From Omnitrophica WOR_2 bacterium GWF2_43_52 (GTDB lineage Bacteria > Omnitrophota > Gorgyraeia > Gygaellales > UBA12090): a stretch of 64,000 bases of DNA. Within the stretch, counting starts at the first letter, position 1. Each line of letters starts with the position of its first letter. The position numbers and the translations under genes are program-made. The notes beneath the pieces are model-generated. The model had not been told where the DNA came from. It searched no databases and saw only the letters and a list, made by a program, of their open reading frames with translations. Below are positions 6,127-38,012 of this stretch, one piece after another. Location: the NCBI GenBank assembly GCA_001805445.1, contig MHGF01000023.1, forward strand, positions 18,859-82,858, given 5' to 3'.

Positions 6127-6138
6127 GTCAGTTATCAA

Positions 6139-21540: not shown

Positions 21541-21750
21541 ATGAAGGAAAAATTTTATTCGACAAAGGATGTGTTAAAGAGGGTTGCGATATCGCGCAAT
21601 ACCTTATTTTTGTGGTTTAAGCACCATAAAATCCCTGAGGCACGGCGCGACCGTAATGGCTACAGGATATTTACAAAAGAAGATATCAGCGCGATTTTGG
21701 CGTATAAGAATAAATTAGTGCTTCCAAAAAGGGCGTCATGGCAAAGATAA
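21541..21750 (+). CDS. Small (69 aa) MerR-type HTH DNA-binding protein
   Basis: YSTKDVLKRVAISRNTLFLWFKHHKIPEARRDRNGYRIFTKEDI matches the MerR N-terminal HTH pattern. It overlaps the pilN start. Confidence 0.6.
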   Translation: MKEKFYSTKDVLKRVAISRNTLFLWFKHHKIPEARRDRNGYRIFTKEDISAILAYKNKLVLPKRASWQR

Positions 21751-22349
21751 ATTTGCTTCCTTCCGAAAGAACAAGTGAAAAGAAAAGCAGAGGGCCCGCA
21801 TTGAGCGTGCGCACGGTGCTTTGGTTTTTGCTTGCCGCCAACATTATTGTTATCCTGGCATCTTTAGGGATAAGGGTTTTCGCGTGGCAGCGCTTAAAAG
21901 GCATGGGCATTATTGACAGTGAATATCAGCAGGCAAGCGCCGTAAGCAGAAAAATACAAACTATAAAGCAGGAACAAAATAAGCTGACACAGGAATTGGG
22001 GGCGTTAGAGAAACTCGCGCAAAGAAATGTTTTATGGAGCGAGGAATTATCCCGCCTGCCGCAGATTATGCCTGAGGAAGTATGGCTTACCAGTTTTTCT
22101 TTTAGGAGTAAATCCTTAAAAGGCCAAGAGGATAAGACCCTTTATTTAAAAGGCGGGCTCAGGCCGCCACCGGAAACAATACCTATGGTTGTATTGAGTA
22201 AGCTTATCAACCAGCTTAAAGAGGATCCGTTATTTTCCGCGGATTTTGATGCCCCCGTCTTAACGGAATCAAAGACCGAAAAAAGAGATATTACGGATAT
22301 CATGACCTTCGCGATAGAGATGTCTTATAAACAGGACACCGGTAAATGA
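21738..22349 (+). CDS. pilN: Type IV pilus assembly protein PilN
   Basis: N-terminal INLLPSE, a single TM helix and a coiled coil. Its position is immediately upstream of the pilO, pilP and pilQ homologues. Confidence 0.65.
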   Translation: MAKINLLPSERTSEKKSRGPALSVRTVLWFLLAANIIVILASLGIRVFAWQRLKGMGIIDSEYQQASAVSRKIQTIKQEQNKLTQELGALEKLAQRNVLWSEELSRLPQIMPEEVWLTSFSFRSKSLKGQEDKTLYLKGGLRPPPETIPMVVLSKLINQLKEDPLFSADFDAPVLTESKTEKRDITDIMTFAIEMSYKQDTGK

Positions 22350-22924
22350 ATAAAAAGCTTCTTGCCAGCCAACAGTCAATTTTTATAACAGTGATAATTT
22401 CCGCGGTGAGCCTGGTGGCAGTAGTGTATTTTGGCTTGTTTCCTTCTCTCGCGAATTTTCAGCAGATAGCCCAGCAGATAAAAGATAAAAAAACAGGGCT
22501 CATCGCGTTAAAAACACCGGCTGAAGAGTATGGGGCGCTGGAGGAAAAGGTAAAAACGCTGGGAGGGCGCAGAGAGGCCTTAAAAAATAAGCTTGTCTGG
22601 GAAAGCGATATCAGTAGTTTCTTAACGCGCATTATCCAGTTAGCTTCTGATTTAAAAATAGAGTTTGTTTCCCTAAGGCCGGAAGTAAAGTCATCGCCTT
22701 CAGAGAAAGTAAAAGGCCTGTCCGATGATTATATGTTGACAGAAGTCCCTATCGTGCTTATAATTAAAAGCAATTACGGGGATTTAATTCAATTCCTGGA
22801 ACGGATAGAGCAATCAGACAAATTTATTGGCGTAGAGTCGTTTTCCATAGATACGCAGCCACTTGATATCTCTACCCACAGTATTAGAATGGATTTGAGC
22901 ATATTTGCCAAGGAAAAGAGGTAG
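22346..22924 (+). CDS. pilO: Type IV pilus assembly protein PilO-like
   Basis: Bitopic membrane protein with a coiled coil, sitting between pilN and pilP. Confidence 0.5.
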   Translation: MNKKLLASQQSIFITVIISAVSLVAVVYFGLFPSLANFQQIAQQIKDKKTGLIALKTPAEEYGALEEKVKTLGGRREALKNKLVWESDISSFLTRIIQLASDLKIEFVSLRPEVKSSPSEKVKGLSDDYMLTEVPIVLIIKSNYGDLIQFLERIEQSDKFIGVESFSIDTQPLDISTHSIRMDLSIFAKEKR

Positions 22925-22937
22925 GGGGGCGGAATCA

Positions 22938-23378
22938 ATGGGAAAGATACTTGCCGCTGTAACGATTGCCATGGCAGCCTATGGCATGTATGTAACCACG
23001 AGTGCCGCGGAACTTCGCGATCCATTTATATCCATTATGGATCTTGAGAAGAAACAAATTGTAGAACAAAAAACTATAGACTTATCCAATGTCGCTCTCA
23101 AGGGAATAATTTGGAATGATGCTTTAGCAGTCGCGGTTATTAACGAAGAATTGATAATGGCCGGAGATACCTGGCGGGATTTTAAGGTTGAGAAGATTGA
23201 AAAAGACAGTGTCCTATTAAGTATCGAAGGCAAAGAATATACACTTTCTCTTGGTGAGGGGGAGAGCCCCGACAAAACAGCGGCCTCGGTACCGCAAACC
23301 CATCAATTATCCCTGCCGGAAGAAGAGCCTTTCACGCAGGGGATCCCCCAGACTGAAGGAGGAAACGAGTGGAGATAA
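22938..23378 (+). CDS. pilP: PilP-like pilus assembly protein
   Basis: ALKGIIWNDALAVAVIN…GDTW…KIEKDSVLLSIEGKEYTLSL fits the PilP beta-sandwich pattern. The ORF track starts at 22905. Confidence 0.5.
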   Translation: MGKILAAVTIAMAAYGMYVTTSAAELRDPFISIMDLEKKQIVEQKTIDLSNVALKGIIWNDALAVAVINEELIMAGDTWRDFKVEKIEKDSVLLSIEGKEYTLSLGEGESPDKTAASVPQTHQLSLPEEEPFTQGIPQTEGGNEWR

Positions 23379-24862
23379 ACGCTAGAAATAAACTGAAGGC
23401 AAAAAGCCTCAGGATTATTTTTTTCTTATCTGTTTTGCTTTGCATGGCTCCGCTATACGCGCAAGAAGTTCCTGCAACCGAGGAGCCCCAGCAGAAGGAG
23501 CAGGAAAGATTCCTTGTGGATTTTGATTTTCGTGATGCCGATATACGCGATGTGGCCAGGGCTTTTTCCCGTATCAGTAAAACCAACATCATTGTCAGCG
23601 ATGACGTAAAAGCCAATGTTACCATGAAGGTCCAAACTATGGATTGGAAAGAGGCGCTGACGATGATCTTGGGCGCCTACAATATCACCCTGATGGAAAA
23701 AGACAGCTATATTATTATCACGACGGCAGAAAGGCGTAAGCAGGCCGAGGAAAGCGGTGAGCTGCAGACTCGTGTCGTAAGCCTTAATTTTGTTAATGTT
23801 GTTGATACCCAAAAGACTTTGCTTTCTATGTTAAGCAGCAGGGGTAGAATAGAAATAGACGCGCGGACAAACAGCCTGGTCATTACCGATATCCCCGAAA
23901 AAGCGGATAAAATTCACAATGTGGCTTTGGAATTGGACACAAAAACTCCGCAGGTAATGATTGAGGCCTTGATAGTGACCGTGAAACTTAATGATGACGA
24001 ACAGTTTGGAATTGACTGGTTGCTCAAGCCTGTTGAAACAAATGAATGGAATTTCCGCCAGGATTTAGCATTGGATAGAACAACGGGTTTTCAGGCAGGC
24101 TGGGCTAAAACGGTTCTCCCTACATGGGCTGACCTTTCAACGCTCATTGAATACTGGAAGGAGCAGAAAAGGGTGAATATCCTTGCCAGCCCTCGGGTAA
24201 TGACCTTGGATAATTTTACCGCTACCATAGACCTTACCGAACAAGTCCCCTATACCTCGCAAAGCCAGTCTACCAGCGGCAGCGGAGAAACGGTGCAGTC
24301 AACGCAATTTAAGGATATCCCGATCAGCCTTTATGTCAAACCTCATATCACCAAGGATAACTACATTTTTATGAATATCAAAACAGAGCAAAGTATTCAT
24401 AGCGGCGATACCTCTGATTTTCAGCCTATTGTTGATTCACGCAAAGCGGAAACCAATGTCATGGTCAGAGACGGAGAAACCGTAGTTATCGGTGGCTTAC
24501 GAAAGAAAGAGCATACGACGACCGTTGATAAGCTGCCCTTTATCAGCGATATTCCTTACGTAGGGAATTTATTTAAAAAAACTATAACCGCGGAGGTGGA
24601 TACGGAACTTCTTATTTTTGTTACTCCGCGCATTGTTACTGAAGCAATGATGACCGAGCATGAGAAAGCGCAGTTGGCAGCCTCAAGCGTATTGAAAGAA
24701 TATGACGAAAAAGGCCTCAACGAGAAAGGCAAGAGCCTAAAACAGAATAGGGTAAAGGAAATTCCAAAGCCTCAAGAGCAAATAAAAACAGCGGGGGATG
24801 TCCCGGGGTTATTTGGGCAGGGTGTTCCTTTTCCTTTGAGGCCGCCTTCAGAATTGAAATAG
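23369..24862 (+). CDS. pilQ: Type IV pilus secretin PilQ (GTG start)
   Basis: Signal peptide, N-domains, and a secretin domain (ETVVIGGL…LPFISDIPYVGNLFK…LLIFVTPRIV). Confidence 0.85.
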   Translation: MEINARNKLKAKSLRIIFFLSVLLCMAPLYAQEVPATEEPQQKEQERFLVDFDFRDADIRDVARAFSRISKTNIIVSDDVKANVTMKVQTMDWKEALTMILGAYNITLMEKDSYIIITTAERRKQAEESGELQTRVVSLNFVNVVDTQKTLLSMLSSRGRIEIDARTNSLVITDIPEKADKIHNVALELDTKTPQVMIEALIVTVKLNDDEQFGIDWLLKPVETNEWNFRQDLALDRTTGFQAGWAKTVLPTWADLSTLIEYWKEQKRVNILASPRVMTLDNFTATIDLTEQVPYTSQSQSTSGSGETVQSTQFKDIPISLYVKPHITKDNYIFMNIKTEQSIHSGDTSDFQPIVDSRKAETNVMVRDGETVVIGGLRKKEHTTTVDKLPFISDIPYVGNLFKKTITAEVDTELLIFVTPRIVTEAMMTEHEKAQLAASSVLKEYDEKGLNEKGKSLKQNRVKEIPKPQEQIKTAGDVPGLFGQGVPFPLRPPSELK

Positions 24863-24879
24863 AAGGGAGAAAAATTTCT

Positions 24880-26055
24880 ATGGCATGGTGGAAAAATGTT
24901 TTTACAGCTTTTGTTTGTGTAAGCGTACCTTTCTTGGCCTTAACGTTATGTAATGCCCAAGATGACGCAACTCTACAGGAAAGCGACGATACCTTGTCTA
25001 TCTTTGAATCGCGAATCAACGCGCTTATTGAAGAAAATATAATGTTAAAGAAGAAGTTAAAGGATTTTGACAGCGGGCTTTCTTCTGTCCAGCGAGGGGC
25101 TTTTTCAGGCGCGGACACGAAGAGCCAAAAGTTGCAAGAAGAAAATCAATCCTTATCAGGGGAATTAGAGAAAAAAGACAAAGAAATTGTCGCGCTGCAA
25201 AAGCAGTTGGCAAACCTTAAAGAAAGCAATCAGGATGCTGAGCCAGCCTCAAAGAGCAAGCTGAAATCTTTAGAAGCAGAAGTGCAGTCTCTGCGCGCGC
25301 AACGAGATGAAAGCAGTAAAGAGAACGCCAGCCTCCGTGGCCAGCTGGAGAAGGCAAAAGATGAAATAGCGGTGGTTGCTGATTTACAAAGTAAACTTAA
25401 GTCTTTGGAAGATGCGGCGCAGTCACTGCGTACAGAGATAGAGGAAAGCAGCAAAGAGAAGAGCGAGCTCCGCGGCCAGATGGAGAAGGCAAAGGGTGAA
25501 ATAGCCGCAGCCGCTAGTGTTTCTGAGGCGTTTAATAAGCTTCAAGAAGAAAACAAAGAATTGCGGGAAAATGTTGCCGCGTTGCAAGAGGCAAATAGCG
25601 CCCAGGCCTTAGAAAGGACCATGTTAGAAGCGATGTTACGCAGGCATCCTCAAGGCCTAAAGCCGCCGCAACCTGCGGGCCCGGATGAAGGTAATTTTGA
25701 CGTGATGATACATACGAATTTAGGATTCGCTTATGCCATGAAGGAAAATATTGATGAGGCTGTCCGAGAATATCAGCAAGCGCTGAGCGCTAACCCTGAA
25801 GATAAGGATATCCATTATAATTTAGGATATCTTCTCAATAAGCAAAATAATTATTCAGAAGCAATTAAAGAGTATTCTCAAGCGCTTAAAGGCACGCCTC
25901 AGGATCAGGAAATATATTATAATGTCGCGCTTATCTACGCGCTTGGCCTTAAAGATGTAAAGACGGCTGAGGAATACCACCAGAAATTTTTGAGCCTTGC
26001 TTCTCCCGATTCCGGTTCTTCATCTCCCGTAGAGGAAGCCGGGAAGGCAAAATAA
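24880..26055 (+). CDS. Lipoprotein with a long coiled coil plus a C-terminal TPR domain; candidate secretin pilotin (PilF/Tgl-like)
   Basis: Lipobox LTLC. It has more than 200 aa of heptad-like E/K/L/Q-rich sequence, then TPR repeats (AYAMKENIDEAVREYQQALSANPED…). Confidence 0.5.
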   Translation: MAWWKNVFTAFVCVSVPFLALTLCNAQDDATLQESDDTLSIFESRINALIEENIMLKKKLKDFDSGLSSVQRGAFSGADTKSQKLQEENQSLSGELEKKDKEIVALQKQLANLKESNQDAEPASKSKLKSLEAEVQSLRAQRDESSKENASLRGQLEKAKDEIAVVADLQSKLKSLEDAAQSLRTEIEESSKEKSELRGQMEKAKGEIAAAASVSEAFNKLQEENKELRENVAALQEANSAQALERTMLEAMLRRHPQGLKPPQPAGPDEGNFDVMIHTNLGFAYAMKENIDEAVREYQQALSANPEDKDIHYNLGYLLNKQNNYSEAIKEYSQALKGTPQDQEIYYNVALIYALGLKDVKTAEEYHQKFLSLASPDSGSSSPVEEAGKAK

Positions 26056-26058
26056 ACA

Positions 26059-27087
26059 ATGCAAGGTGAAAATCCTCTGAGAGCTATCTTTCATCAGCCT
26101 TCCTGCCGCAGCGGGTTAGATATAGGAAATTACAGCGTTAAGTTCGTTACCATCAAAAAAGCGCCTCTGCGCAAAAAAAGCCTTCTTTCTTTTTCTGCCG
26201 TAACACTTGCCAAGAATGCCTCAGGCCAGAATATACAAGACGCCATCGTACAGGCATCGCAGGGCATGCCTCCGGAGTCAAAAAAAATAAAATTGTCTAT
26301 TTCTGGCCCAAATATCATTGCCCGGTATATCCTTTTGCCGGCGATGAAGGAGTCTGATTTAGCGAAAGCGCTAGAGTTCGAGTTGGAAAAATACATCCCC
26401 TATAAAAAGGAAGAGGCGATTATTAATTATTATATATTAACCCGCCTGCCTAATAACCAGATGGTCGTGTTGTTTGTTGCCGCGGAGCGTAAGGTTGTGC
26501 AGGAACGGATTGATTTGGTTAAAGGCGCTGGCTTGGAGCCGCAGCTTATTACTATCGATGCCCTTGCTTTATGCGAGATTTTTAAAGCTTTGGTCCCAAA
26601 ATATAAAGGGGTGGCAGTTATTTTAGATATCGGATACCGCTTGACCAAGTTGGTAGTCTTAGAAAATAATATCCCCTTTTTCTCCCGGGATATAGAAATC
26701 GGAGAATATGACATTATTCAAATGATTGCCGACAGGATGAATATCTCCTATGTAACAGCAAAAGAACAGGCCTGCGGCGCAGATGAGCATAAGGTGAAGG
26801 AGTTAGCCGAGGCAGCAAAAACCGAGTTGCATACTTTATTGAATGAAATTTCGTTATCTTTTGAATATTGCGAAAGAAATCTGGAAAAAAAGGTGCAGCA
26901 AATCTTCTTATGCGGCGGAGGCTCAAGAATAAAAATCTTATCAGGCTTCTTAGAAGGAATTCCTGATGTTAAAATAAGCTTTCTTGACCTTGCGCAAGGA
27001 TTTAGCGTAGTTTCAGCAGCCAGTTCTCAGGAAATTCATGATTCTGCCTCTTTTCTCTGTGTGGGGGCAGGCTTAGCGCTTAGTTAG
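26059..27087 (+). CDS. pilM: Type IV pilus assembly ATPase-fold protein PilM (actin-like)
   Basis: GLDIGNYSVKFV N-terminus and a C-terminal …LCGGGSRI motif. Confidence 0.8.
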   Translation: MQGENPLRAIFHQPSCRSGLDIGNYSVKFVTIKKAPLRKKSLLSFSAVTLAKNASGQNIQDAIVQASQGMPPESKKIKLSISGPNIIARYILLPAMKESDLAKALEFELEKYIPYKKEEAIINYYILTRLPNNQMVVLFVAAERKVVQERIDLVKGAGLEPQLITIDALALCEIFKALVPKYKGVAVILDIGYRLTKLVVLENNIPFFSRDIEIGEYDIIQMIADRMNISYVTAKEQACGADEHKVKELAEAAKTELHTLLNEISLSFEYCERNLEKKVQQIFLCGGGSRIKILSGFLEGIPDVKISFLDLAQGFSVVSAASSQEIHDSASFLCVGAGLALS

Positions 27088-27429
27088 TGAGCACTGAAAA
27101 GTGGTAACTAATTAGCGGACGTATCAAGCAACCGCGGCCTTAATTTTTAAGACAGTAACAAGAATATCTTCCTTTCTATCATTTTCTTCTTTTCCTATCC
27201 AAAAATGCAGCGCATTGTTTAACCACAGAATAGTCATTCTCTGTAAAATGAGGGATAATACCATTTGATTTTTATCTATTTTGGTGCTATATATATATTT
27301 GTTTTATCAGCCTGCAAGAAGCGAGCTTTAACGCTTCTTACGCGGTAAACTTTGGTTCATTCGTAAATAATGTGGAGCACTTAGCGTAACTGTTTGATAA
27401 TAAAGGGGAATTGCTAAAATCACTAGCAA

Positions 27430-27705
27430 TAGCGAAACTAATAGTTTTTGCAGCGAATGGTTCGACTACGCTCACCATTCGTACTGAGCAAAGTCGAAGT
27501 ACGAATGATGATTTTAGGCAAAAAGTCCGAATAGTTTCGGGAATCCCGATGCTCTCTAAGTATCATCGGAGCAATATCGGGACGACGAGGATGTGTGAGC
27601 CCCGACGAGTCCGGCGGGGCGAGTTCCGCAGTCGCCGAAACTATGAGAGGCTTTTTGACGTGAAAAAATCGTCCTGAGCGAAAAAATTATTAGTTTTGCA
27701 AACCA
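27430..27705 (+). ncRNA. Highly structured ~275-bp intergenic element of unknown identity, bounded by imperfect direct repeats (ACTAATAGTTTTTGCA / ATTATTAGTTTTGCAA)
   Basis: It contains multiple nested stem-loops (CGAATGG…CCATTCG; GTACTGAGCAAAGTCGAAGTAC; CGGGAATCCCGATG…CATCGG; CCCCGACGAGTCCGGCGGGG). The ORF 27411-27677 across it is implausible. I found no other copy in the window. Confidence 0.3.
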
Positions 27706-27763
27706 CTACATCCACAAAATTCACGAAAGAACCTAAACTTTTAACAGGATTATACTGTTAGCA

Positions 27764-30700
27764 ATGGAACCTTCCGAGAATATACAAAGAGCCGCAGAAA
27801 AAGATATCCGTTTCGCCGAACCTACCTTTATTGACCCTTTGACGAGATTATATAACCAATACTATCTTTTCCAGTTTCTTCCAGAGGAGATTAAAAAAGC
27901 GAATTTAGGGAATTATTCCTTGGCAGTCTTTATGATTGACTTGGACGGTTTTAAATATGTCAATGATACCTATGGCCACCTCTGCGGGGATGATGTTTTA
28001 AAGCAGATGGCAGAGATCCTTAAAAAATCAGTGCGCCAGACCGATATGGTGATTCGCTACGCGGGCGATGAATTTACCATTCTTTTGCCGGGCGTTGATT
28101 TGGCGCGGGTTGAAAAGTTGTCTGGGCAGCTTATAGAAAATGTCGCGAAAAACCCTTTTAAGGGATTAGAGGGAGAAAGCCTGAATCTGACCATAAGCAT
28201 GGGTTTTGCTATGTGCCCTGAAGATGGTACCGAGGTAGACAGGCTGATAGAATTGGCGGATAAGGCGCTCTACTTATCGAAACAGAGAGGGAAAAACCGT
28301 GTTTCTCAGGCAAAAGAAGTAACCCAGGAGAAAGTAAGTTCCCTTATCGCGTTGGATTCATTTCCTTGCCCCGCGTTTATCGATAGGCGCAAGGAAATAG
28401 ACACGCTCGCAAATATCTTTGATACGAAAGTATCGCAGGATAATTCATTACAGATGGCATTGATTTCCGGTGACGCGGGAATCGGCAAGTCTCGGCTGCT
28501 GACAGAATTAAATAATTATGTCCATGATAAGGCGGTTGTCATTGGCTGCCATGCTTCTCTTACGCACAAGGGGAATCCTTATTTTCTCTTTGCCCAGGGG
28601 ATCTCAAATTATATTCAGAAGATCGGCCCGCGTAATCCTCAGCTTGCTAATCTTCTCGCTAATGTCCCTATTGAAGAAGTCACAGAGCTCAGCCGAATCA
28701 TCCCCTTATTAGCTCCTCTGGTTGGAAGTTCGCAGGAGGTATCAGGAGAGGATAAGAAAGCGCGATTTTTACTCTTTAAGGGATTGCTTGACTTTTTTAT
28801 AGAGCTTACGCGCCATTCGGCGGTTGTATTTTCGTTTGATGACCTGCAATGGGCAGATAAGGCAAGTATCGAGCTGTTGCGCTACCTTTCCAAACAGGAA
28901 AAAAACAGGCGCATATTTATCGTATGCAGCCTTTCAGGGGATAGCTATGGAGAAGCAGTCAGGGATAATTATTTCAGGCCTTGGCAGGAAGAATTGAGCC
29001 TTATGGATAACGTTGCCGTAGTAAAGCTATCAACCCTTTCGTCAGAAGACGCGTCGAAAATGGTTGATGCTATTTTTCCCGGGACAGGCAGGGATGGGGA
29101 ATTTTGTAAGTCATTGTACGCGGCCACAAAGGGAAACCCTTCTTTTATTGAAGAAGTGCTGAAGTCGCTTGTGGAGAATTCGGTGATTCTGTATCAGGAT
29201 AACCGCTGGATGATAAAAAAAGAACTGTATAACCAGGGAACGTCATTTTCGCTGGAGGAGATTATCAAAAAACGCTTGAAAAGCCTGGATGAAGAGACCA
29301 AGGAGATGATTGTCCAGGCGGCAGTCATCGGGGAAGATTTTTCGCTTGATTTTTTAAGGAAGATCGATAATCGTGATGAAGGGTTTATGCTTGAGCTTTT
29401 AAACCGGGCAAAGAAAATGCGTTTGATAGATGAGACCGAACAAAAAGGCAAATACGGCTTTATCAATAAAAATATACAGCATATGCTCTATAACGAATTA
29501 AATGAAGAAGAGCGCGCACAGCTTCATCATAAGATTGCCAATGTTCTCGGCCAAGAGCATAAAGACAATTTATCCCAAGTGGCAGGAGAAATGGCATTCC
29601 ATTATACCCAGGCGCCCGGACAGGAGAAATCGGATGAGTTTCGTAGGACGCTTCTGGAAAAAGCCTCGGAACTTTTCAGCCCGGTCGAGATTGTCGAATA
29701 CCTCGATAACCTTTCAAAAAAAGCTCCTCTGGCAGAAGAAAAGGTGCTTCCCCTTACTGATGAAGCGCTTATTCATGAGGCAGTGAGGTTTGTTCGAATG
29801 CTTCAGAACGCCAGAAAGGTTTTTCATTTGTATCCTCCGGGAGCGATGAGAATCAACGCGGTGCAGGAGGCATTTGGCCTGGTAGAGCATATACTGAAAA
29901 GCACCGCGATGGTTGTGATAAGCCAGTCAGAAAGAAGGCTGCTTCTTAACGGAGAAGCAGTGATTATTAAAGAGGTTGATCAGGCAAGCGTTGAGAGTTT
30001 TTTGCAGCTTTTGTTGGAATATAATATCCAGTCACTATCCTTTAAGAACGGCATTATTCCCGAGGAATTGAATATTTTTCTCGATTACGCCAGTGCTCCT
30101 TCGGAAAAGATTAAGGAAAAAGGCGGCTGGGGGGCAATTTTCAATAAGGAAACCATGAAATCCCTCAAGGTTAATGACGCGCGTTTCGCGCAACCTGCGG
30201 GGCAGGAAAAAGAATCGGGAAAGAAAGATAAGCTCAAAGATATGATGCTCATGGAATTTTTCTTGGGTAAAGCAGGTATGGGAGGGATAGATAAAAAAAC
30301 GGTTATTAGTACAATCGAGAACGAACCGCAGAGTTTTGCCCGCACGCTTCAGGAAGCAGCCAAAGAATCGCTCAAGGAGGGTAAGACCAAGGATGAGGCA
30401 AAGGCGGTTACCGAAAGCATTGAAAAGATACATTCGCAGATATTCGGTAAGCAGCTGCAAAAAGCCTCTGACCCTAAGGCATTGGCCCGGATTATTATAG
30501 AGCTTGAACCGGGATTAAGAACCCGGGTTATACGGCTTCATTTGAAGGAGCAATCTTTGAAGACACCCGATACAAAAGACGATATGCTGTACGTGCTTCC
30601 TGAGGCGATTATCGTTGAGGCGCTTATCGTGGAATATAAGGAGTCCCAGGGAAATCTTATTGTCGTTAAGGCTTGCTTTGACAAAGCCTTTGGCAATGAC

Positions 30701-31843
30701 GCGGCAAGAAAACAGGCGGCATTAGCTTTATTAGAAGTATCGCTGGGTGAGCTTCAGGCGGAGAAAAGCGCCGCGCCTTTTATCGGCGGGCAGTTTCCCT
30801 GGGAGAATGTTTCACTTCCCGCGCGCCTGGAGACTCTTGCTAGCTTGCCGGATAACTATTACCCTGCTGAATTAGGAAAAATAAAATTATTATTGGAAGA
30901 GTTAACCTCGCATCAGAAGCCGGTGGAGTTGGAAAAATTTATATCGCACCTGCTTGCGAAAGTAGGCAAGTTTGACCCCTTGATCCGTAAGGACATTATT
31001 ATGGCGCTCTCTGGCGTAGTGAAAACATCGTTATGTAACGATACTATTGACAGCCTTAAAATGCAGGATAGGTTAGGAATTATATGGAAACTTTTAAAGG
31101 CTGAATCACAGCCAAGAGAATTCCGTGTTTTACTGGATATCCTTCGGGATGCCTGCAGGGAACTTGCTTCTCATTTGCAATTACTGGGTGATGTGGTTCT
31201 TGAAAGAGACAAGCCTGAAGTGAAGAAATATGTCGCGTTTATACGCCAGCTTTGTTTTTCCCTTGGAGAGGCAATGCAAAAAGAAAAAAACAGTGATTCG
31301 GAAATATGCAAGCTTGCCGCCGGATTTATAAAAGATATAGTGTATGGCAGGCTTTTAGAGGTTTTCGCCTATGCTGTTGTCAGTGCTTCTGGAGAAGAAA
31401 GAGCGAAGGTAAAGATACTCTTTCCTTTTATTTACGAGAAACTAGCGGATGCTGTGATCGCTTTTCATGCCTCCAAGGATATAAAGTTTGGAGATTCGTT
31501 TTCAGAGTACGCGATAATCAAGGGAAGCGCTGATGTTTTGCTGGAACTTGGGGAGCCGGCATTGCATAGGCTAAAGCAGAAATTATCCCAGGCACGCGAT
31601 GATATATCCGTATCACTCATTGAGTTAATCAAACACCTTAATAAAGAGGAATTAATAGAGCCGTTATCTTCACTGATTCACCACAAAAATCAGGTAATAC
31701 GCTATAAGGTGATTGTAGCTTTAGCCGCTATCGGAACCCAGAAGGCGCACGAAGTGCTTGTTGGGGCGCTCAAGGGAGAGAAAGATAAAAGGATGCGGTC
31801 GTTACTTAAAGACGAAGTGCGTAAGTTAAAGGCGAAAAGATAA
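27764..31843 (+). CDS. 1359-aa protein with GGDEF (AGDEF variant, intact RxxD I-site), AAA_16/STAND NTPase, a helical domain and C-terminal HEAT/ARM-like repeats
   Basis: The GGDEF domain spans residues ~15-185 (DLDGFKYVNDTYGH…RQTDMVIRYAGDEFTILLPG). Walker A is GDAGIGKSRLLTEL and Walker B is VVFSFDDLQWAD. The C-terminal ~300 aa hold PBS-lyase/HEAT-like repeats (…VIRYKVIVALAAIGTQKAHEVLVGAL). Confidence 0.8.
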   Translation: MEPSENIQRAAEKDIRFAEPTFIDPLTRLYNQYYLFQFLPEEIKKANLGNYSLAVFMIDLDGFKYVNDTYGHLCGDDVLKQMAEILKKSVRQTDMVIRYAGDEFTILLPGVDLARVEKLSGQLIENVAKNPFKGLEGESLNLTISMGFAMCPEDGTEVDRLIELADKALYLSKQRGKNRVSQAKEVTQEKVSSLIALDSFPCPAFIDRRKEIDTLANIFDTKVSQDNSLQMALISGDAGIGKSRLLTELNNYVHDKAVVIGCHASLTHKGNPYFLFAQGISNYIQKIGPRNPQLANLLANVPIEEVTELSRIIPLLAPLVGSSQEVSGEDKKARFLLFKGLLDFFIELTRHSAVVFSFDDLQWADKASIELLRYLSKQEKNRRIFIVCSLSGDSYGEAVRDNYFRPWQEELSLMDNVAVVKLSTLSSEDASKMVDAIFPGTGRDGEFCKSLYAATKGNPSFIEEVLKSLVENSVILYQDNRWMIKKELYNQGTSFSLEEIIKKRLKSLDEETKEMIVQAAVIGEDFSLDFLRKIDNRDEGFMLELLNRAKKMRLIDETEQKGKYGFINKNIQHMLYNELNEEERAQLHHKIANVLGQEHKDNLSQVAGEMAFHYTQAPGQEKSDEFRRTLLEKASELFSPVEIVEYLDNLSKKAPLAEEKVLPLTDEALIHEAVRFVRMLQNARKVFHLYPPGAMRINAVQEAFGLVEHILKSTAMVVISQSERRLLLNGEAVIIKEVDQASVESFLQLLLEYNIQSLSFKNGIIPEELNIFLDYASAPSEKIKEKGGWGAIFNKETMKSLKVNDARFAQPAGQEKESGKKDKLKDMMLMEFFLGKAGMGGIDKKTVISTIENEPQSFARTLQEAAKESLKEGKTKDEAKAVTESIEKIHSQIFGKQLQKASDPKALARIIIELEPGLRTRVIRLHLKEQSLKTPDTKDDMLYVLPEAIIVEALIVEYKESQGNLIVVKACFDKAFGNDAARKQAALALLEVSLGELQAEKSAAPFIGGQFPWENVSLPARLETLASLPDNYYPAELGKIKLLLEELTSHQKPVELEKFISHLLAKVGKFDPLIRKDIIMALSGVVKTSLCNDTIDSLKMQDRLGIIWKLLKAESQPREFRVLLDILRDACRELASHLQLLGDVVLERDKPEVKKYVAFIRQLCFSLGEAMQKEKNSDSEICKLAAGFIKDIVYGRLLEVFAYAVVSASGEERAKVKILFPFIYEKLADAVIAFHASKDIKFGDSFSEYAIIKGSADVLLELGEPALHRLKQKLSQARDDISVSLIELIKHLNKEELIEPLSSLIHHKNQVIRYKVIVALAAIGTQKAHEVLVGALKGEKDKRMRSLLKDEVRKLKAKR

Positions 31844-31846: not shown

Positions 31847-32302
31847 ATGTCACCGCTCAGGCGTGTTAAGGCAAAAATCGGGGATTTGCTGCTACAGGAT
31901 GGCCTCATTACCGAGGCGCAGCTGCAGGAGGCCATTTCTTTGCAGAAGACTAATGCTAAAGACAAGACCTTGGGGCAAATTTTGTTAGAATTCGGGTATG
32001 TCAAGAAAGATGATTTATATACCGTTTTGGCTGTTCAAAGCGGCTATCCTTATCTTGCTATTCATCATTGCGTTGTCAATCCCAAGGTCTTAGCGCTTTT
32101 ACCGGAATCAGTAGTAAGAAAACATCAGGCGTTTCCTATTGATAAAATCCATGATATTTTTACCGTCGCCATGGTAAATCCTCTGGATAGGGCTGCTCTT
32201 GAGCAGATTGAAGATCTTGTTCAAAGCAGGGTGAGGGTTTTTTTAACAACGCCCGCGGATTTGGAAAAGGCGTTGAACCGCTACTATAGCGTAAAAACGT
32301 AG
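31847..32302 (+). CDS. Free-standing MshEN / T2SSE_N (PilB N1) domain protein; candidate c-di-GMP receptor
   Basis: KIGDLLLQDGLITEAQLQEAISLQ matches the 24-residue MshEN c-di-GMP-binding motif RLGxx(L/V/I)(L/V/I)xxG(L/V/I)(L/V/I)xxxx(L/V/I)xxx(L/V/I/F)xxQ. The rest is a GspE_N fold. It is in frame with the downstream ATPase but separated from it by TAG and TAA stops. Confidence 0.7.
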   Translation: MSPLRRVKAKIGDLLLQDGLITEAQLQEAISLQKTNAKDKTLGQILLEFGYVKKDDLYTVLAVQSGYPYLAIHHCVVNPKVLALLPESVVRKHQAFPIDKIHDIFTVAMVNPLDRAALEQIEDLVQSRVRVFLTTPADLEKALNRYYSVKT

Positions 32303-32359: not shown

Positions 32360-33592
32360 ATGCCGCCATCTGAAAAAAACGAAAAGCCGATACAAGAGCC
32401 AGCCATCCCCTCGGGTGTCATTGATGATAATCCTGTTGTGCTGGCGGTCAATAAGATTCTGGTTGAGGGAATAGAGAAAGGTTCAAGCGACATTTTGATC
32501 GAACCGTTAGATAATGAAGTGCAGGTGCGCTACCGGATTGACGGAATACTTCACAGGATGCATCTTTTTCCTAAAAGCTTTCAGGATGGAATCGTAGGCC
32601 GTATAAAGGTAATGTCCGGGCTGGATATCAGTGAGCACAGGCTTCCTCAGGACGGAAGGCTGAAAATGACGTATAGCTCTAAGGAGGTAGATTTACGGGT
32701 TTCTGTTCTGCCCGCGAGCCTGGGTGAAAAAGTAGTATTGAGAGTATTGGATAAATCAAGGACCGTGCTTGATATCAGTACCTTAGGATTTGACCAGCGC
32801 ACGCTTGAGCTGTTAAAGGTTAATTTAGTTAAGCCGGTAGGCATGATTTTGGTTTGTGGAGCAACAGGTTCCGGAAAGACGACAACACTCTATTCCGCGG
32901 TACAATACATTGATTCTATCGATAAGAATATCGTTACCGTTGAAGACCCCGTAGAATACCAATTGTACGGGATCAATCAAGTAGCGGTCTCTGAAGATAT
33001 AGGGCTGAATTTCGCCTCTGCCTTGCGCTCCATACTGCGCCAGGACCCCGATGTGGTGCTTGTGGGAGAAATAAGGGATTTTGAAGCTGCCGACATCGCT
33101 ATTAAGGCATCGTTAACCGGCCACCTGCTTTTAAGCACGCTCCACACCATTTCCGCGACCGGGTCTACGGTGCGTTTGATGAATATGGGCATAGAGCCGT
33201 TTCTCATTGCCTCGTCGTGCCTTTTAGTGGTAGCGCAGGTTTTAGCGCGCCTCTTGTGCCCTAAGTGTAAAGAGCCCTATCATCCGTCAAAAGAAGTAGC
33301 GGATGTTCTTCGGGCTTCTCATCTTAGCCTGGATGAACAAACAGTGTTGTATCGGAAGAAAGGCTGCAACGAGTGCAATCATGCCGGGTTTAAAGGAAGG
33401 ACGGTCGTTGCTGAAAGTTTAGAGATTACCGCTAGTATCAGAGATTTGATTATCGCGCGCGCGTCGGAACAAGATATCAGGAATGCCGCCTATAAAGAGG
33501 GGATGGTAAGTATCAGCGAGAATGGCTTTCAATTAGTATTGGAAGGGCTTACCACGATGGATGAGATTTTACGCGTAACCTCTCTTGAATGA
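32360..33592 (+). CDS. PilB/GspE-family secretion ATPase lacking the N1 domain (N2 domain, RecA-like ATPase and tetracysteine Zn motif)
   Basis: Walker A GATGSGKTTTLY, Asp and His boxes, and CPKC…CNEC. Confidence 0.85.
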   Translation: MPPSEKNEKPIQEPAIPSGVIDDNPVVLAVNKILVEGIEKGSSDILIEPLDNEVQVRYRIDGILHRMHLFPKSFQDGIVGRIKVMSGLDISEHRLPQDGRLKMTYSSKEVDLRVSVLPASLGEKVVLRVLDKSRTVLDISTLGFDQRTLELLKVNLVKPVGMILVCGATGSGKTTTLYSAVQYIDSIDKNIVTVEDPVEYQLYGINQVAVSEDIGLNFASALRSILRQDPDVVLVGEIRDFEAADIAIKASLTGHLLLSTLHTISATGSTVRLMNMGIEPFLIASSCLLVVAQVLARLLCPKCKEPYHPSKEVADVLRASHLSLDEQTVLYRKKGCNECNHAGFKGRTVVAESLEITASIRDLIIARASEQDIRNAAYKEGMVSISENGFQLVLEGLTTMDEILRVTSLE

Positions 33593-35285
33593 GGTAAAAC
33601 GTTACATCGCTATGGATACGAAGAATCAAAATAACTATTCCGGTGATAAAATAAAGGGGGATACTCCTTTGTCAGCCTCTGTCTCCTTGCGGCTTGAGGC
33701 TGATTCGCTGGAGGAACTGCAGCTAAAGAAAATACTTTCTTTTTGCGAAGACCTGGATATCCCGGTCATTAACCTAGCCAACTATAAAATTCCTCCTGAA
33801 TTGCTGCGCTTAATTTCCGAAGATTTGGCAAGGACGTACAAAATTATTCCTGTGGCCAAATATGGGAATATGCTTACCGTCGCTACCGCGGATCCGTTTG
33901 ATATTGTGGCTATAGATAATTTTAAGACGATAACAAAATTAGACATCCGTCTGGTCTTAAGCGCTCCCGCGCAGATAGCCAAGGCCTTAAATGACTACTA
34001 TAGCGCGCTCAATTTAGAAAAGGCTATGGATGAGAATCAAGTCCTGGTAGAAGAAACGCTTAAGGTTGAGGCAGTTGCCAATGACGCGATAAATATTGAA
34101 GAGATCGCGGAATTAAGCCAGCAGGTACAGATAGTTGAGATGGTTAATAGTATTTTAACCGATGGCCTGAAGCAGCGTGCCTCAGATATCCACATTGAGC
34201 CCTATGCCCAGAAGTTCCGGATACGGTATCGTATCGATGGTATTTTACAGGAGAGAAAGCTTGCCATAGAGAAGCAGTATGAATACGCGGTGATTGCCCG
34301 GCTTAAGATCATGTCACAACTGGATATTACGCAGCGCAGGCTTCCTCAAGACGGAAGGATTTCGATTAAAGTAGCCGATAAAGAAATTGACCTTCGGGTA
34401 TCGGTCTTGCCGCTGGCTACCGGTGAAAAGATAGTCATGAGAATCCTGGAAAAAGGCAATGTGCAGGTAAACCTGGAAAAATTAGGGTTTTCTGCTACCG
34501 CGCAAGAAGCGTTTAGAAGGGTTATTCACAGGCCTAACGGCATGATCCTCGTTACCGGCCCTACCGGAAGCGGAAAGTCTACCACACTCTACGCGATATT
34601 AAGCCTTTTAAATGTTCCGGAAAAAAACTTGATTACTGTCGAAGATCCTGTAGAATATCAAATGAAAGGGATAACGCAGGTTCATGTGCGTTCAGATATC
34701 GGTTTGACCTTTGCCAGCGTTTTAAGGGCGATTTTGAGGCAGACCCCTGATGTTGTTATGGTGGGTGAAATCCGCGATTTTGAAACCGTGGATATAGCAA
34801 TTAAAGCAGCGCTCACCGGCCACCTTATCTTAAGCACCCTGCATACCAATGACGCCCCCAGCACCATTGTGCGCCTTATCAATATAGGGGTAGAGCCGTT
34901 TTTAATTGCCTCAACGGTTAATCTTATTGCCGCGCAGAGGCTTTGCCGTAAGATCTGCCAGCAATGCAAAGAATCCTATACCTTGCCTCCCATGAACCTG
35001 AAAGGATTACCCGCTGAATATAAGGATAAAAAAGCGATTTTTTTCCGGGGCAAGGGTTGTCCGCGGTGTAACAATACCGGTTATTACGGACGGGTGGCAA
35101 TAATCGAGGCGCTGGTGATGGATGATGTTGTACGCCAGATGATTACGGATAAGGTGCCGATACCGAATATTGCCGAGTACGCCCGTAAGCATGGGATGAA
35201 GACCTTGCGGGAAGATGCCATCGATAAATGTTTGTTAGGCGAGATTTCTTTAGAGGAAGCTTTACGGGTAACCCCTGAAGGCTAA
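33585..35285 (+). CDS. pilB: Type IV pilus assembly ATPase PilB (full length, with N1 domain)
   Basis: GspE_N domain, Walker A GPTGSGKSTTLY, and CQQC…CPRC. 566 aa. Confidence 0.9.
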   Translation: MNEVKRYIAMDTKNQNNYSGDKIKGDTPLSASVSLRLEADSLEELQLKKILSFCEDLDIPVINLANYKIPPELLRLISEDLARTYKIIPVAKYGNMLTVATADPFDIVAIDNFKTITKLDIRLVLSAPAQIAKALNDYYSALNLEKAMDENQVLVEETLKVEAVANDAINIEEIAELSQQVQIVEMVNSILTDGLKQRASDIHIEPYAQKFRIRYRIDGILQERKLAIEKQYEYAVIARLKIMSQLDITQRRLPQDGRISIKVADKEIDLRVSVLPLATGEKIVMRILEKGNVQVNLEKLGFSATAQEAFRRVIHRPNGMILVTGPTGSGKSTTLYAILSLLNVPEKNLITVEDPVEYQMKGITQVHVRSDIGLTFASVLRAILRQTPDVVMVGEIRDFETVDIAIKAALTGHLILSTLHTNDAPSTIVRLINIGVEPFLIASTVNLIAAQRLCRKICQQCKESYTLPPMNLKGLPAEYKDKKAIFFRGKGCPRCNNTGYYGRVAIIEALVMDDVVRQMITDKVPIPNIAEYARKHGMKTLREDAIDKCLLGEISLEEALRVTPEG

Positions 35286-35438: not shown

Positions 35439-36647
35439 ATGTCACTTTTTAGCTATACGGCAACCGATTATAGCGGGCAGAAGATAACCGGAAGAATGGA
35501 GGCAAAAGACAGGGCTGTCCTTATCAATAATTTGAGGAAGAATCAGTTGGTTATCATCGCGATAAGGGAGCTCAAAGAATCGGAGGTCCGCGCGCTTAAG
35601 AAAAGCGGCAGGGTAAAGCTGGATGACTTGACGGTATGCTTCAGGCAGTTAGCCGCCTTGGTGAAAGCGGGCATTCCGCTGGTAAAAAGCTTGAATATCC
35701 TTTTTGCCCAGGCCGAGAGCCCTTTTTTGAAAGAAATTCTTTCCTCATTACTAGCTAAAATAGAATCCGGCACAAGCCTTTCCGAGGCAATGAGCAGTTA
35801 TCCCCAGGTATTTTTATCTATGCATATCAATATGATTAGGGCAGGTGAAGTTAGCGGTGCGCTGGAAACGATTTTAGAGAGGCTTGCTCTTTACTTAGAG
35901 TCATCAAGTAAACTTAACCGCAAGGTGAAATCCGCGATGATGTATCCTGCCGTGGTTATCAGTGTCGCGCTTATGATTACCACGGGTATATTTATCTTCG
36001 TCATCCCTCAGTTCCAGGGCATGTTTGCCTCGTTAGGGGCAAATTTACCGCTTCCTACGCAGATTATGATTAACTTAAGCAATTTTCTTCGGCAGTACTT
36101 TGTTGCCCTTATTATTTGTGGTATACTTCTATGGGTAGCTTTACAAAAGGTTATGGCGAAGCCACAGGTTAGGGTAAGATGGGACAGGATAAAGCTGGAT
36201 TTACCTGTGGCGGGAAAACTAATCCGTAAGATTGTCGTCGCCCGTTTCGCGCGGACAACCTCCACCTTGCTTAAAAGCGGAGTGACTATTCTTTCGGCCC
36301 TCGATATCGGCAGTAAGACCACGGAAAATAGGACTATTGAAATAACCTTGGCGAAAGTAATCAACAGAGTCAGTAAGGGAGAGAGAATTGGGGAGTCATT
36401 GGCAGAAAATAAGGTCTTTTCGCCCATGGTAGTCAGTCTTATCGCGGTAGGTGAGGAAACCGGAGACCTTGGCTCTATGCTGGATAAGATTGCCAGTTTT
36501 TATGAAGATGAGGTTGATACCGCCATTAGCGGGCTTACCTCTTTGCTTGAGCCGTTTATCATTGTCTTTTTAGGAGGCATGATCGGCACTATTGTGCTGT
36601 CGTTATTTTTGCCTATTTTTAAAATTACCCAATATGTGGGAAGGTAA
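35439..36647 (+). CDS. pilC: Type IV pilus inner-membrane platform protein PilC (GspF family)
   Basis: Two GspF repeats, three TM segments, about 400 aa. Confidence 0.9.
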   Translation: MSLFSYTATDYSGQKITGRMEAKDRAVLINNLRKNQLVIIAIRELKESEVRALKKSGRVKLDDLTVCFRQLAALVKAGIPLVKSLNILFAQAESPFLKEILSSLLAKIESGTSLSEAMSSYPQVFLSMHINMIRAGEVSGALETILERLALYLESSSKLNRKVKSAMMYPAVVISVALMITTGIFIFVIPQFQGMFASLGANLPLPTQIMINLSNFLRQYFVALIICGILLWVALQKVMAKPQVRVRWDRIKLDLPVAGKLIRKIVVARFARTTSTLLKSGVTILSALDIGSKTTENRTIEITLAKVINRVSKGERIGESLAENKVFSPMVVSLIAVGEETGDLGSMLDKIASFYEDEVDTAISGLTSLLEPFIIVFLGGMIGTIVLSLFLPIFKITQYVGR

Positions 36648-36651
36648 GGAG

Positions 36652-37149
36652 ATGAACACGATGATAGGAAAGCAGAATACGGTAAGAAGGCAAAAGGCTG
36701 TTACCCTTATTGAGCTTTTAATTTCGCTTTTTATCGGGGTTGTGGTAATTGGCGCCTTGCTGGGGTTGGTTAATTATACCTCCGAATTGCAGGAAACATC
36801 GCGCAATAAAATGATTGCCTTAAACGACGCCCGGCAGGTTATTGAGCAGATAAAATATGCTGCCGATACCAGTTTTGATAATGCGATCAGCCAGTACAGC
36901 GCTGCCGCGAATCAGACGTTTACTCCCGCGGGATTAGACGCTAGAGGAAGGATTATCTTAAATAACGTAGCCGGAGGCGGCGGTGACCTTTATGATGTGA
37001 TGGTTCTTGTCTGCTGGAGGCAGCGAAGAAACAGGATAATCGGCGAGTGTGTAAATAGTGGCGGGGTGCTGCAATTTAGCGATTTGGATGGAGATGGAAA
37101 CCTTGAATCGCCTTGCTCGCTCACTACAGCTATCAGGAGGACGAATTAA
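36652..37149 (+). CDS. Pseudopilin / minor pilin (class III signal …QKAVTLIELLISLFIGVVV)
   Basis: Prepilin-like N-terminus with Glu at +5 and Ala at -1. RBS AAGGAG lies upstream. The ORF track starts at 36592. Confidence 0.6.
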   Translation: MNTMIGKQNTVRRQKAVTLIELLISLFIGVVVIGALLGLVNYTSELQETSRNKMIALNDARQVIEQIKYAADTSFDNAISQYSAAANQTFTPAGLDARGRIILNNVAGGGGDLYDVMVLVCWRQRRNRIIGECVNSGGVLQFSDLDGDGNLESPCSLTTAIRRTN

Positions 37150-37152
37150 CCT

Positions 37153-37725
37153 ATGAAAAAAGGATACAGCCTTTTGGAAGTCTTAATCGTGGCAGGCTTG
37201 ATTGTTGTGGTAACAGCTTTGCTATTGAATATGTCAAATACTTTTAATTTAAGCTGGGATGTCCAAAATGTCAAGATGGAATTAGACCAGCAGGCACGCC
37301 GCGGCATAGACGAGATGATAAGAGATTTATATGAGGCTACGTCTACTTCTGGTCAAACCACGGTTACTGCTAATAGCGTTAATTTCAGAGTCCCGGTAGT
37401 GGTTGATGACAATTTTCCTAATCCTCCGGATATTTATGACGCCAGCGGCAATATTTATTGGGGGGCAGACGGAGTAGTCGGCAATAATATTAGCTACCGC
37501 GTCAATTCAGGCCAGTTAGTAAGAGAAGTGATAAGCGGAACGAGTATAATCAGCAGCCGTGTCTACGCTAATAATGTTACAAACTTAGCTTTCACCCAGC
37601 AGCCTCCTAGCCCGCAGTTTCCCAGAGCTATAGCGATAAATATTACTTGCCAGAAGCCGGTGCGCAGGGGGTCTCTTACCCTGGCTAATTCCACTATGCA
37701 GTCACAGGTTACTCTGAGAAATTAA
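37153..37725 (+). CDS. Pseudopilin / minor pilin (MKKGYSLLEVLIVAGLIVVV)
   Basis: Canonical G at -1, Y at +1, and E at +5. Confidence 0.7.
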   Translation: MKKGYSLLEVLIVAGLIVVVTALLLNMSNTFNLSWDVQNVKMELDQQARRGIDEMIRDLYEATSTSGQTTVTANSVNFRVPVVVDDNFPNPPDIYDASGNIYWGADGVVGNNISYRVNSGQLVREVISGTSIISSRVYANNVTNLAFTQQPPSPQFPRAIAINITCQKPVRRGSLTLANSTMQSQVTLRN

Positions 37726-37936
37726 CCCATGGCAACCTTGAAAAGTTACACACTCTATGATATACTATAAGTAGTAATTTAGAAAGAGACCTATTGTTAA
37801 AGGCAAATCCGCCGTAAGGCGGAGACGCAAAGCCAATGAGCCCGCCAACGATATGTGGCGAGGTAGTCAGGTTGCCAAAGGGTAATAAGTTTTAAGAATC
37901 CTGCAGGCATTCTGCGGGATTTTTTTATGGAGTATT

Positions 37937-37985: not shown

Positions 37986-38012
37986 GAAAAAGCTTTGACA
38001 AGGAGGATAAAA

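Follow-up and report, generated by a model that had tools for sequence, protein, structure and literature searches.

The DNA analysed here, referred to as the window, is a stretch of 64,000 nucleotides (nt) from Omnitrophica WOR_2 bacterium GWF2_43_52 that carries a type IV pilus gene cluster. Every gene between 18948 and 42892 lies on the + strand. Our subject is an uninterrupted, ATG-initiated open reading frame (ORF) at 27764..31843 (+) within this cluster, referred to hereafter as the cyclase gene. Its product of 1359 amino acids (aa) joins an N-terminal GGDEF domain to a STAND (signal transduction ATPase with numerous domains) NTPase, an undescribed mid-domain and a C-terminal HEAT/ARM solenoid. 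It is followed by a gene for a stand-alone MshEN protein, a predicted receptor for cyclic diguanylate (c-di-GMP), and by genes for two PilB-type ATPases. The features of this region are:

27764..31843, + strand: gene for the GGDEF - STAND NTPase - undescribed mid-domain - HEAT/ARM solenoid protein (ATG start, 1359 aa)
27827..28309, + strand: GGDEF diguanylate-cyclase domain, residues 22-182 (Pfam, TIGR00254 and PDB matches)
28034..28045, + strand: inhibitory site (I-site) RQTD, residues 91-94 (PleD R359-D362), five residues before AGDEF
28061..28075, + strand: AGDEF active-site motif, residues 100-104 (PleD G368-F372)
28352..29617, + strand: STAND module, residues 197-618 (P-loop domain, helical arm, winged helix)
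28469..28492, + strand: Walker A GDAGIGKS, residues 236-243
28823..28843, + strand: Walker B VVFSFDD, residues 354-360, followed by LQWAD
29132..29140, + strand: GxP motif GNP, residues 457-459, in the STAND arm domain
29762..30175, + strand: undescribed mid-domain, residues 667-804 (helical hairpin and small alpha/beta domain)
30251..31840, + strand: all-alpha HEAT/ARM-like solenoid, residues 830-1359 (AlphaFold2 (AF2), HEAT_2 and Foldseek)
31847..32302, + strand: stand-alone MshEN protein, 151 aa, predicted c-di-GMP receptor, 3 nt past the stop codon of the cyclase gene
32360..33592, + strand: PilB/GspE-type ATPase, 410 aa, without the N1 (MshEN) domain (T2SSE E 3e-127)
33585..35285, + strand: second PilB-type ATPase, 566 aa, MshEN_C part present, c-di-GMP-binding helices gone

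Pfam placed GGDEF at residues 22-179 (151.7 bits, E 1.9e-44, cutoff 23.8), AAA_16 at residues 205-387 (74 bits, E 2.6e-20, cutoff 32.6) and HEAT_2 at residues 1270-1346 (32.4 bits, E 1.1e-7, cutoff 27.7). An earlier, sequence-only reading of this DNA had proposed a GGDEF domain, a STAND NTPase and a HEAT/ARM solenoid, and the domain search agrees with it, including the assignment of the N-terminal domain to GGDEF. The RxxD I-site and AGDEF motif that it named are read in the translation as RQTD (91-94) and AGDEF (100-104), and its Walker A GDAGIGKS and Walker B hhhhDD are found at 236-243 and, as VVFSFDD, at 354-360. What it overlooked in an otherwise correct architecture is the undescribed domain of about 140 residues between the STAND module and the solenoid. 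It knew of no described family with this combination, and the searchable literature likewise yielded no description of a STAND-controlled diguanylate cyclase, of this family or of the mid-domain.

The 1359-aa protein is a member of a genuine conserved Omnitrophota family. Among 5.8 billion proteins searched, about 100 were full-length homologues (1260-1490 aa) with 22-57% identity and the same Pfam set. Nearly all homologues that bear names belong to Candidatus Omnitrophota, and their annotation is merely "diguanylate cyclase"; the record of the protein itself, from Omnitrophica WOR_2 bacterium GWF2_43_52, calls it hypothetical, and NCBIfam gave only domain-level matches to it, with no family-level model. 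Pairwise identities and all residue counts out of 95 given below were taken from an alignment of 95 full-length homologues (A1). The source is a metagenome-assembled genome, and the ORF might in principle be chimeric through misassembly or join what are separate genes. The identical protein occurs on 11 contigs, the longest of 177 kb, and base composition is even along the whole gene, which makes misassembly very unlikely. Together with the roughly 100 homologues of like build and an AF2 model that is continuous across the domain junctions, these observations exclude a chimeric or fused origin for practical purposes, and we put the remaining chance of it as negligible.

The GGDEF domain matched TIGR00254 at 160.9 bits (cutoff 37.4) and the full PF00990 model (positions 2-161), and matched the PDB cyclases 6d9m, DosC and PleD at E 1e-36 to 1e-28. 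The alignment to PleD (1w25) is ungapped before residue 137, with an offset of +268 to the numbering used in the literature. Residues D59, K64, N67, D76 and R98 (PleD D327, K332, N335, D344 and R366) are invariant in 95/95, as are G101, D102 and E103 (PleD G369, E370 and E371) and K173 (PleD K442), and position 177 (PleD R446) is K or R in all 95. The first residue of the signature motif, position 100, is Ala in 91/95 and Gly in 4/95, a departure from the canonical GG(D/E)EF signature, and F104 is kept in 94/95. With Ala in 91 of the 95 sequences, AGDEF is a fixed family trait and not a sign of decay, and its fixation across sequences with identities down to 22% points to selection for Ala and not to mere tolerance. 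An AGDEF enzyme, VCA0965 of V. cholerae, synthesises c-di-GMP (PMC3974145). Since the catalytic and GTP-binding residues are invariant and AGDEF is a trait of the family, the domain is most likely an active cyclase; conservation thus predicts a domain that is probably catalytic. The I-site is less well conserved than the catalytic residues (R91 in 70/95, with K in 15; D94 in 84/95).

In Hypr GGDEF enzymes, which produce cyclic GMP-AMP (cGAMP), Ser replaces Asp at the base-specifying position (PleD D344). The equivalent residue here, D76, is Asp in 95/95, the residue of c-di-GMP-specific enzymes, which argues for GTP specificity and speaks against a Hypr/cGAMP enzyme; the Hypr reading was rejected on this ground.

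The protein has the sequence and fold features that define STAND proteins: a P-loop, a GxP arm, a winged helix, an N-terminal effector and a C-terminal repeat sensor. Residues 197-618 matched positions 475-885, the AAA_16-containing middle, of the NCBIfam model TIGR03903 (TOMM kinase/cyclase fusion protein) at E 3.8e-35. In the Walker A motif G241 is conserved in 95/95, K242 in 93/95 and S/T243 in 94/95; in and after Walker B, D359 is conserved in 93/95, D360 in 74/95 (N in 13, E in 6) and D365 in 95/95. The two motifs fit the patterns GxxxxGK[ST] (Walker A) and hhhhD[DE] (Walker B). G457 of the GxP motif is invariant and P459 is kept in at least 90% of the A1 sequences, the consensus being TKGNPxFIEE. 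The AF2 model of residues 186-1359 (mean pLDDT 85.2, pTM 0.51) comprises a P-loop alpha/beta domain, a helical arm and a winged helix, then further helices; it runs continuously and with good confidence through the junctions, and its helices and strands at residues 427-580 fit an arm followed by a winged helix. The best Foldseek matches in the PDB were the STAND-TPR protein 6mfv (E 9e-8), Avs4, Apaf-1, CED-4, plant NLR resistosomes and Orc/Cdc6; the alignments to 6mfv, Apaf-1 and CED-4 covered 400-900 columns at E 9e-8 to 9e-6. STAND proteins oligomerise when activated, and by analogy the module described here would do the same.

Beyond the STAND module, the mid-domain (residues 667-804) had no Pfam match and no solved structural relative. 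Its signature within the family is N-x2-LYP-x-G-S ... L-x2-N-G ... I-K-S-I-x-F ... E-L ... G-G-W. The solenoid that follows resembles importin-beta, SF3b155 and beta-catenin by fold (Foldseek), and alphaRep/HEAT entries of the PDB match it by sequence. With residues 655-1359 as query, phmmer recorded 635 matches among 1.84 billion representative proteins at E <= 1e-3. With a hidden Markov model (HMM) of the mid-domain, we found it near position 650 in 148 proteins, namely the members of this family, and at the N-terminus of 52 further proteins, most of them 540-800 aa long with a mid-domain and HEAT_2. One such mid-domain and HEAT_2 protein is a complete gene adjoining PAS-HD-GYP and dCache-PAS genes, and a mid-domain-HEAT-cNMP_binding-PilZ architecture occurs in at least six proteins. 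A metagenome scan with a narrow mid-domain alignment gave 8 loci. In locus L093, two unusually long MshEN+T2SSE ATPases encoded one after the other, 957 and 1186 aa in length, have the mid-domain at the N-terminus (HMM E 8e-31 and 4e-27, respectively):

4883..8443 of L093: PilB-type ATPase, 1186 aa, with a mid-domain-led N-terminal extension
8799..11672 of L093: PilB-type ATPase, 957 aa, with a mid-domain-led N-terminal extension

The signature common to these placements is N-x2-LYP-x-[GS]-S ... NG ... I-x-S-I-x-F-x2-G ... EL ... GG. The fusions suggest a mobile module that travels with c-di-GMP parts and PilB-type motors, and the mid-domain is a newly defined domain, which accompanies PilB, PilZ and GGDEF. 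Because L093 joins this sensor domain to MshEN-PilB ATPases, the motor is the suggested partner of the sensor. The 1186-aa ATPase of L093 also contains a run of repeats of about 20 residues (…GYGRADEIP[AT]GRTGKNGNP[YN]IERNP…).

The 151-aa protein encoded 3 nt downstream of the cyclase gene matched NF053729 ("c-di-GMP_motif, MshE-related") at residues 10-64 with 59.9 bits (cutoff 38) and the Pfam MshEN model at residues 66-148. An MshEN domain is recognised by two tandem motifs of the form RLGxxL(L/V/I)xxG(L/V/I/F)(L/V/I)xxxxLxxxLxxQ, with an essential Gly at position 3 of each. The protein has both 24-residue motifs, KIGDLLLQDGLITEAQLQEAISLQ and TLGQILLEFGYVKKDDLYTVLAVQ. They start with KIG... 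and TLG..., so that the essential glycines G12 and G43 are kept, while the first Arg is replaced by K or T and the spacer is 7 residues in place of 5. Gly was present at position 3 of both motifs in all of the 11 stand-alone MshEN proteins inspected. In V. cholerae MshE the substitutions G11I/L and G40I abolish c-di-GMP binding, and changes of the first Arg shift affinity less than 5-fold (PMC5013675).

The neighbouring ATPases differ in this respect: the region is missing altogether, or the positions of the essential Gly residues are T, S, I, D, K or N. The 410-aa ATPase matches the PilB model from position 174 onward and the 566-aa ATPase from position 37. Since the motifs are kept in the stand-alone protein and lost in the ATPases, the former would be the dedicated MshEN-type receptor of the cluster. 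In neighbour-joining trees without support values, the ATPase cores formed two orthologous groups, with the N1-less 410-aa ATPase orthologous to full-length "E1" ATPases elsewhere, and the stand-alone MshEN proteins formed a clade of their own. A simple "split pilB", as the sequence-only reading had called this arrangement, fails as a full explanation: the MshEN-only clade is separate and is also present where both ATPases are full-length. What is conserved is an MshEN-only protein of its own lineage beside ATPases without a c-di-GMP site of their own, and the stand-alone protein appears from its sequence to be the dedicated predicted c-di-GMP receptor of the cluster, not merely the detached head of the next gene's product. 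GspE-type N1 domains bind a GspL/PilM-like platform, so a trans-acting N1 domain could make the tethering or licensing of the N1-less ATPase depend on c-di-GMP.

We compared gene order in the window and 17 further loci, a sample of 18 and not a census; locus L095, which ends before the 3' end of the gene, was left out of the count. A gene for an MshEN-only protein of about 150 aa directly followed the cyclase homologue in 14 of the 18 (the window, L081-L086, L088, L089, L094 and L096-L099). The spacing between the two genes was -8 to +6 nt in 8 of the 9 loci with called coordinates (the window, L081-L086, L088 and L089). Two gene orders recurred, namely cyclase, MshEN, N1-less ATPase, ATPase, PilC and ATPase, ATPase, cyclase, MshEN, PilC. 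PilM, secretin and PilO were mostly close by, with position and orientation varying between loci. The sequence-only reading had suggested looking for homologues next to type IV pilus genes, and this is what the survey found in most loci, with the MshEN gene adjacent and the ATPases and PilC alongside; its placement of the gene between pilM and pilB was right for the window, and adjacency to PilM was not kept in other loci. Conserved synteny, together with the domain fusions found elsewhere, strongly supports a functional tie of the cyclase gene to the pilus genes.

In L085 (4719..6546) and L088 (3656..5557), the same clusters contain a HAMP-GAF-GGDEF gene followed 2-4 nt later by a gene for a second stand-alone MshEN protein with intact motifs. 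Pairs of one cyclase and one MshEN may be a recurring design in Omnitrophota.

The remainder of the pilus cluster in the window is as follows:

18948..21398, + strand: CHASE2 - degenerate GGDEF - HD-GYP protein, predicted c-di-GMP phosphodiesterase, at the start of the cluster
21738..27087, + strand: PilN-like protein, PilO, GspB/C-like 157-aa protein, secretin, coiled-coil/TPR protein and PilM
26059..27087, + strand: PilM, upstream neighbour of the cyclase gene (PilM_2 E 6e-36)
35439..36647, + strand: PilC/T2SSF platform protein (T2SSF E 1.3e-60)
36592..37725, + strand: two pilin-like genes with an N-terminal methylation motif
37793..37880, + strand: candidate c-di-GMP-I-type riboswitch aptamer, GGC variant (RF03167)
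37974..40457 and 40481..42892, + strand: two paralogous large pilin-like proteins of 827 and 803 aa, downstream of the riboswitch

Pfam identified CHASE2, a membrane sensor (E 4e-38), and HD_5 (E 9e-42) in the protein at 18948..21398. Its HD (679), HHE (732) and GYP (740) motifs are intact and its GGDEF motif has decayed to YGESA. The riboswitch match to RF03167 is full-length, with 64.7 bits (gathering score 59) and E 5e-13.

We lean modestly towards the view that the 1359-aa protein is a cytoplasmic diguanylate cyclase gated by a built-in STAND switch and serves as a local source of c-di-GMP for the adjoining type IV pilus motor. GGDEF domains are active solely as dimers (PMC7825114). Combined with the oligomerisation expected of a STAND module, this makes induced pairing of GGDEF domains the most economical reading. 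From the architecture, motif conservation, fold, gene order and domain fusions observed, we infer the following sequence of events. At rest, a sensor formed by the mid-domain and HEAT solenoid would keep the NTPase closed and monomeric, leaving a lone GGDEF domain without a partner. A trigger would bind the sensor; the likeliest candidates are components of the pilus motor, namely the PilM/PilC platform, one of the PilB-type ATPases or the MshEN protein. Nucleotide exchange would then allow the STAND module to open and oligomerise, and the GGDEF domains, separated from the NTPase by about 20 residues, would be brought together to convert two GTP to c-di-GMP, with the RxxD I-site limiting output by product inhibition. 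The co-translated stand-alone MshEN protein would capture c-di-GMP and supply in trans the N1 domain lost by the two neighbouring PilB-type ATPases, so that pilus extension is licensed. The same signal could act on the riboswitch before the large pilin-like genes, and the CHASE2-HD-GYP phosphodiesterase would remove c-di-GMP; HD-GYP protein and riboswitch would thus complete a local circuit.

A more specific picture, which we put forward only tentatively, is that of an apoptosome-like signalosome, in which the sensor docks on a PilB-type motor or senses host contact through it, STAND oligomerisation fires the AGDEF cyclase by induced proximity, and c-di-GMP is passed directly to the co-translated, trans-acting MshEN protein that gates the two ATPases. 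If this were true, it would amount to a phylum-wide, hard-wired local c-di-GMP circuit for the attachment pili of ultra-small, host-dependent Omnitrophota.

Several observations weigh against a STAND-gated local source of c-di-GMP. The I-site, to judge by the alignment, is absent from part of the family (R91 in 70/95), and the strictly kept Ala of AGDEF could mean changed kinetics or regulation. The inter-domain arrangement in the AF2 model is uncertain at this pTM, which leaves a closed or open state unreadable. MshEN and pilus genes were absent near the homologues in L100 and L101, which are of Omnitrophota type (41% and 28% identity), and in the distant loci L087 and L090 (labelled Planctomycetota and "bacterium"). 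The ATPase and MshEN trees were of the unsupported neighbour-joining kind, and the candidate riboswitch belongs by sequence to the "GGC" variant class, for which c-di-GMP is a presumed ligand.

The protein might instead be a c-di-GMP-responsive scaffold or receptor of the pilus and not a source, with a non-catalytic GGDEF domain whose I-site binds c-di-GMP or whose A-site binds GTP. In favour of this, the first Gly of GGDEF is replaced, the RxxD I-site of the window protein is intact, AGDEF in some GGDEF-EAL proteins (NbdA) has been called degenerate, and the HAMP-GAF-GGDEF and REC-GGDEF cyclases present in some of the same clusters could provide the c-di-GMP. We nevertheless consider it unlikely. 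The residues that contact metal, GTP and the transition state are invariant in 95/95 down to 22% identity, a constancy not expected if the protein were solely a receptor. Activity of an AGDEF enzyme has been demonstrated (PMC3974145), and conservation is weaker at the I-site, on which a receptor would depend. The sequence-only reading had left open whether the protein binds or produces c-di-GMP, and invariant catalytic residues and the activity of AGDEF enzymes elsewhere favour production. The signalling hub for pilus regulators that it also envisaged stays hypothetical.

Two further explanations were weighed. MshM/ExeA (GspA) takes a similar place in MSHA and type II secretion clusters, and the NTPase might likewise be a pilus or secretin assembly ATPase to which the cyclase domain is accessory. 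The gene does follow genes for a secretin, an MshN-like TPR protein and PilM and precede those for MshE-type ATPases, a GspB/C-like 157-aa ORF is nearby, and Pfam reported weak matches to AAA_22, the domain of MshM/ExeA and GspA. These matches (21.3 bits) fall below the cutoff of 27, against 74 bits for AAA_16, no GspA/ExeA model was among the NCBIfam matches, and the protein's arm, winged helix, GxP motif and repeat sensor are of the STAND type. Moreover, the place relative to secretin and PilM varies between loci while MshEN adjacency is conserved, and an assembly ATPase seems to us quite improbable. A defence role, in which an Avs- or NLR-like STAND protein senses an invader protein and uses c-di-GMP as an alarm in a merely incidental pilus neighbourhood, is more improbable still. 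STAND proteins with C-terminal repeats are common in anti-phage defence and Avs4 was among the top fold matches. However, none of the 5027 PADLOC defence models matched the protein at E <= 0.01, the order with core pilus genes is conserved phylum-wide, unlike a variable defence island, and the sensor module is fused elsewhere to PilB-type ATPases and PilZ.

A close functional parallel is V. cholerae MshE/MSHA (PMC5013675, PMC4624765), where a PilB-type extension ATPase is likewise under the control of c-di-GMP via a 53-residue tandem MshEN motif. In Vibrio the ATPase itself begins with MshEN, and the genes for the cyclases lie apart; in the window, a distinct 151-aa protein carries MshEN, the site is lost from the ATPases, and a dedicated cyclase gene ends 3 nt upstream. 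The Xanthomonas FimX-PilZ-PilB system (PMC10333796) is similar in that PilB itself is non-binding and separate proteins relay c-di-GMP. There, in contrast, a PilZ protein and a GGDEF-EAL receptor of degenerate sequence act as the adaptors, and the complex is without MshEN, STAND or a catalytic cyclase. In E. coli DgcJ-NfrB, one specific cyclase reportedly serves the MshEN domain of a glycosyltransferase, so that there too a single cyclase is dedicated to a single MshEN-containing target. That target is an exopolysaccharide synthase, however, and DgcJ is a membrane cyclase without an NTPase switch.

In its build the protein resembles the TIGR03903 TOMM kinase/cyclase proteins, which have an N-terminal cyclase-fold effector, a homologous AAA_16 STAND module and C-terminal helical repeats. 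Mycobacterial adenylyl cyclases of the Rv0386 type are also STAND proteins, with a nucleotide cyclase-AAA_16-TPR arrangement. TIGR03903- and Rv0386-type proteins use a class III cyclase as effector, alone or joined to a kinase, and TPR as sensor, alone or with an HTH; the present protein has GGDEF as effector and an undescribed domain with HEAT repeats as sensor, and its gene is part of a pilus operon. The databases also hold GGDEF-AAA_16-TPR and kinase-AAA_16-GAF-GGDEF proteins (P0094, P0098, P0102-P0120), so the bare domain pairing is not unique; the searchable literature contained no description of either architecture. The Apaf-1/CED-4 apoptosome and Avs proteins are the best fold matches and share the induced proximity of N-terminal effectors that is proposed here. 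They differ in that identity is 11-15%, the effector is a second-messenger synthase and not a CARD or nuclease, and the oligomer is, in the present case, only proposed. VCA0965 shares the AGDEF variant of the active site; unlike VCA0965, the present protein has a STAND module, and its Ala is fixed in the family where that of VCA0965 is the peculiarity of a single protein. A STAND NTPase controlling a diguanylate cyclase would, to our knowledge, be the first case of its kind, and two papers on Omnitrophota describe the pilus clusters, not the cyclase-STAND gene.

It has long been asked how c-di-GMP and other diffusible messengers act on specific targets. The locus encodes together a predicted source (the cyclase), switch (STAND), receptor (MshEN), target (two PilB-type ATPases), sink (HD-GYP) and RNA sensor, and the cyclase-MshEN-ATPase core is shared throughout the phylum. 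In the Omnitrophota, which are uncultured and may be predators or parasites, type IV pili are believed to serve for attachment to a host (PMC10066038), so the trigger of the switch may be a host-contact signal. All of the parts are soluble, which would permit study in vitro without culturing the organism.

Some further features of these loci were recorded. The minor-pilin-like genes precede the riboswitch aptamer of the window, and the 827-aa ORF follows it. The 827-aa and 803-aa proteins have near-identical N-termini (…NKGVALI[ML]ALGVSSVLLTL…) and no Pfam or NCBIfam match, and may, to judge from sequence, be pilus-tip or adhesin subunits. The gap between PilM and the cyclase gene is unusually long (677 nt, 27088..27763), and an Rfam search of it gave nothing at E <= 1. 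Within this gap, a 261-nt stretch at 27420..27680 (+), single-copy within the window, has a minimum free energy of -94.9 kcal/mol (z = -4.5 relative to shuffled sequences), and an 88-aa ORF at 27411..27677 without a Pfam match overlaps it. Giant ORFs are known in Omnitrophota, and in L083 an ORF of 2160 aa without a Pfam match (1676..8158) lies about 1.8 kb upstream of the cyclase homologue, with two small genes between them.

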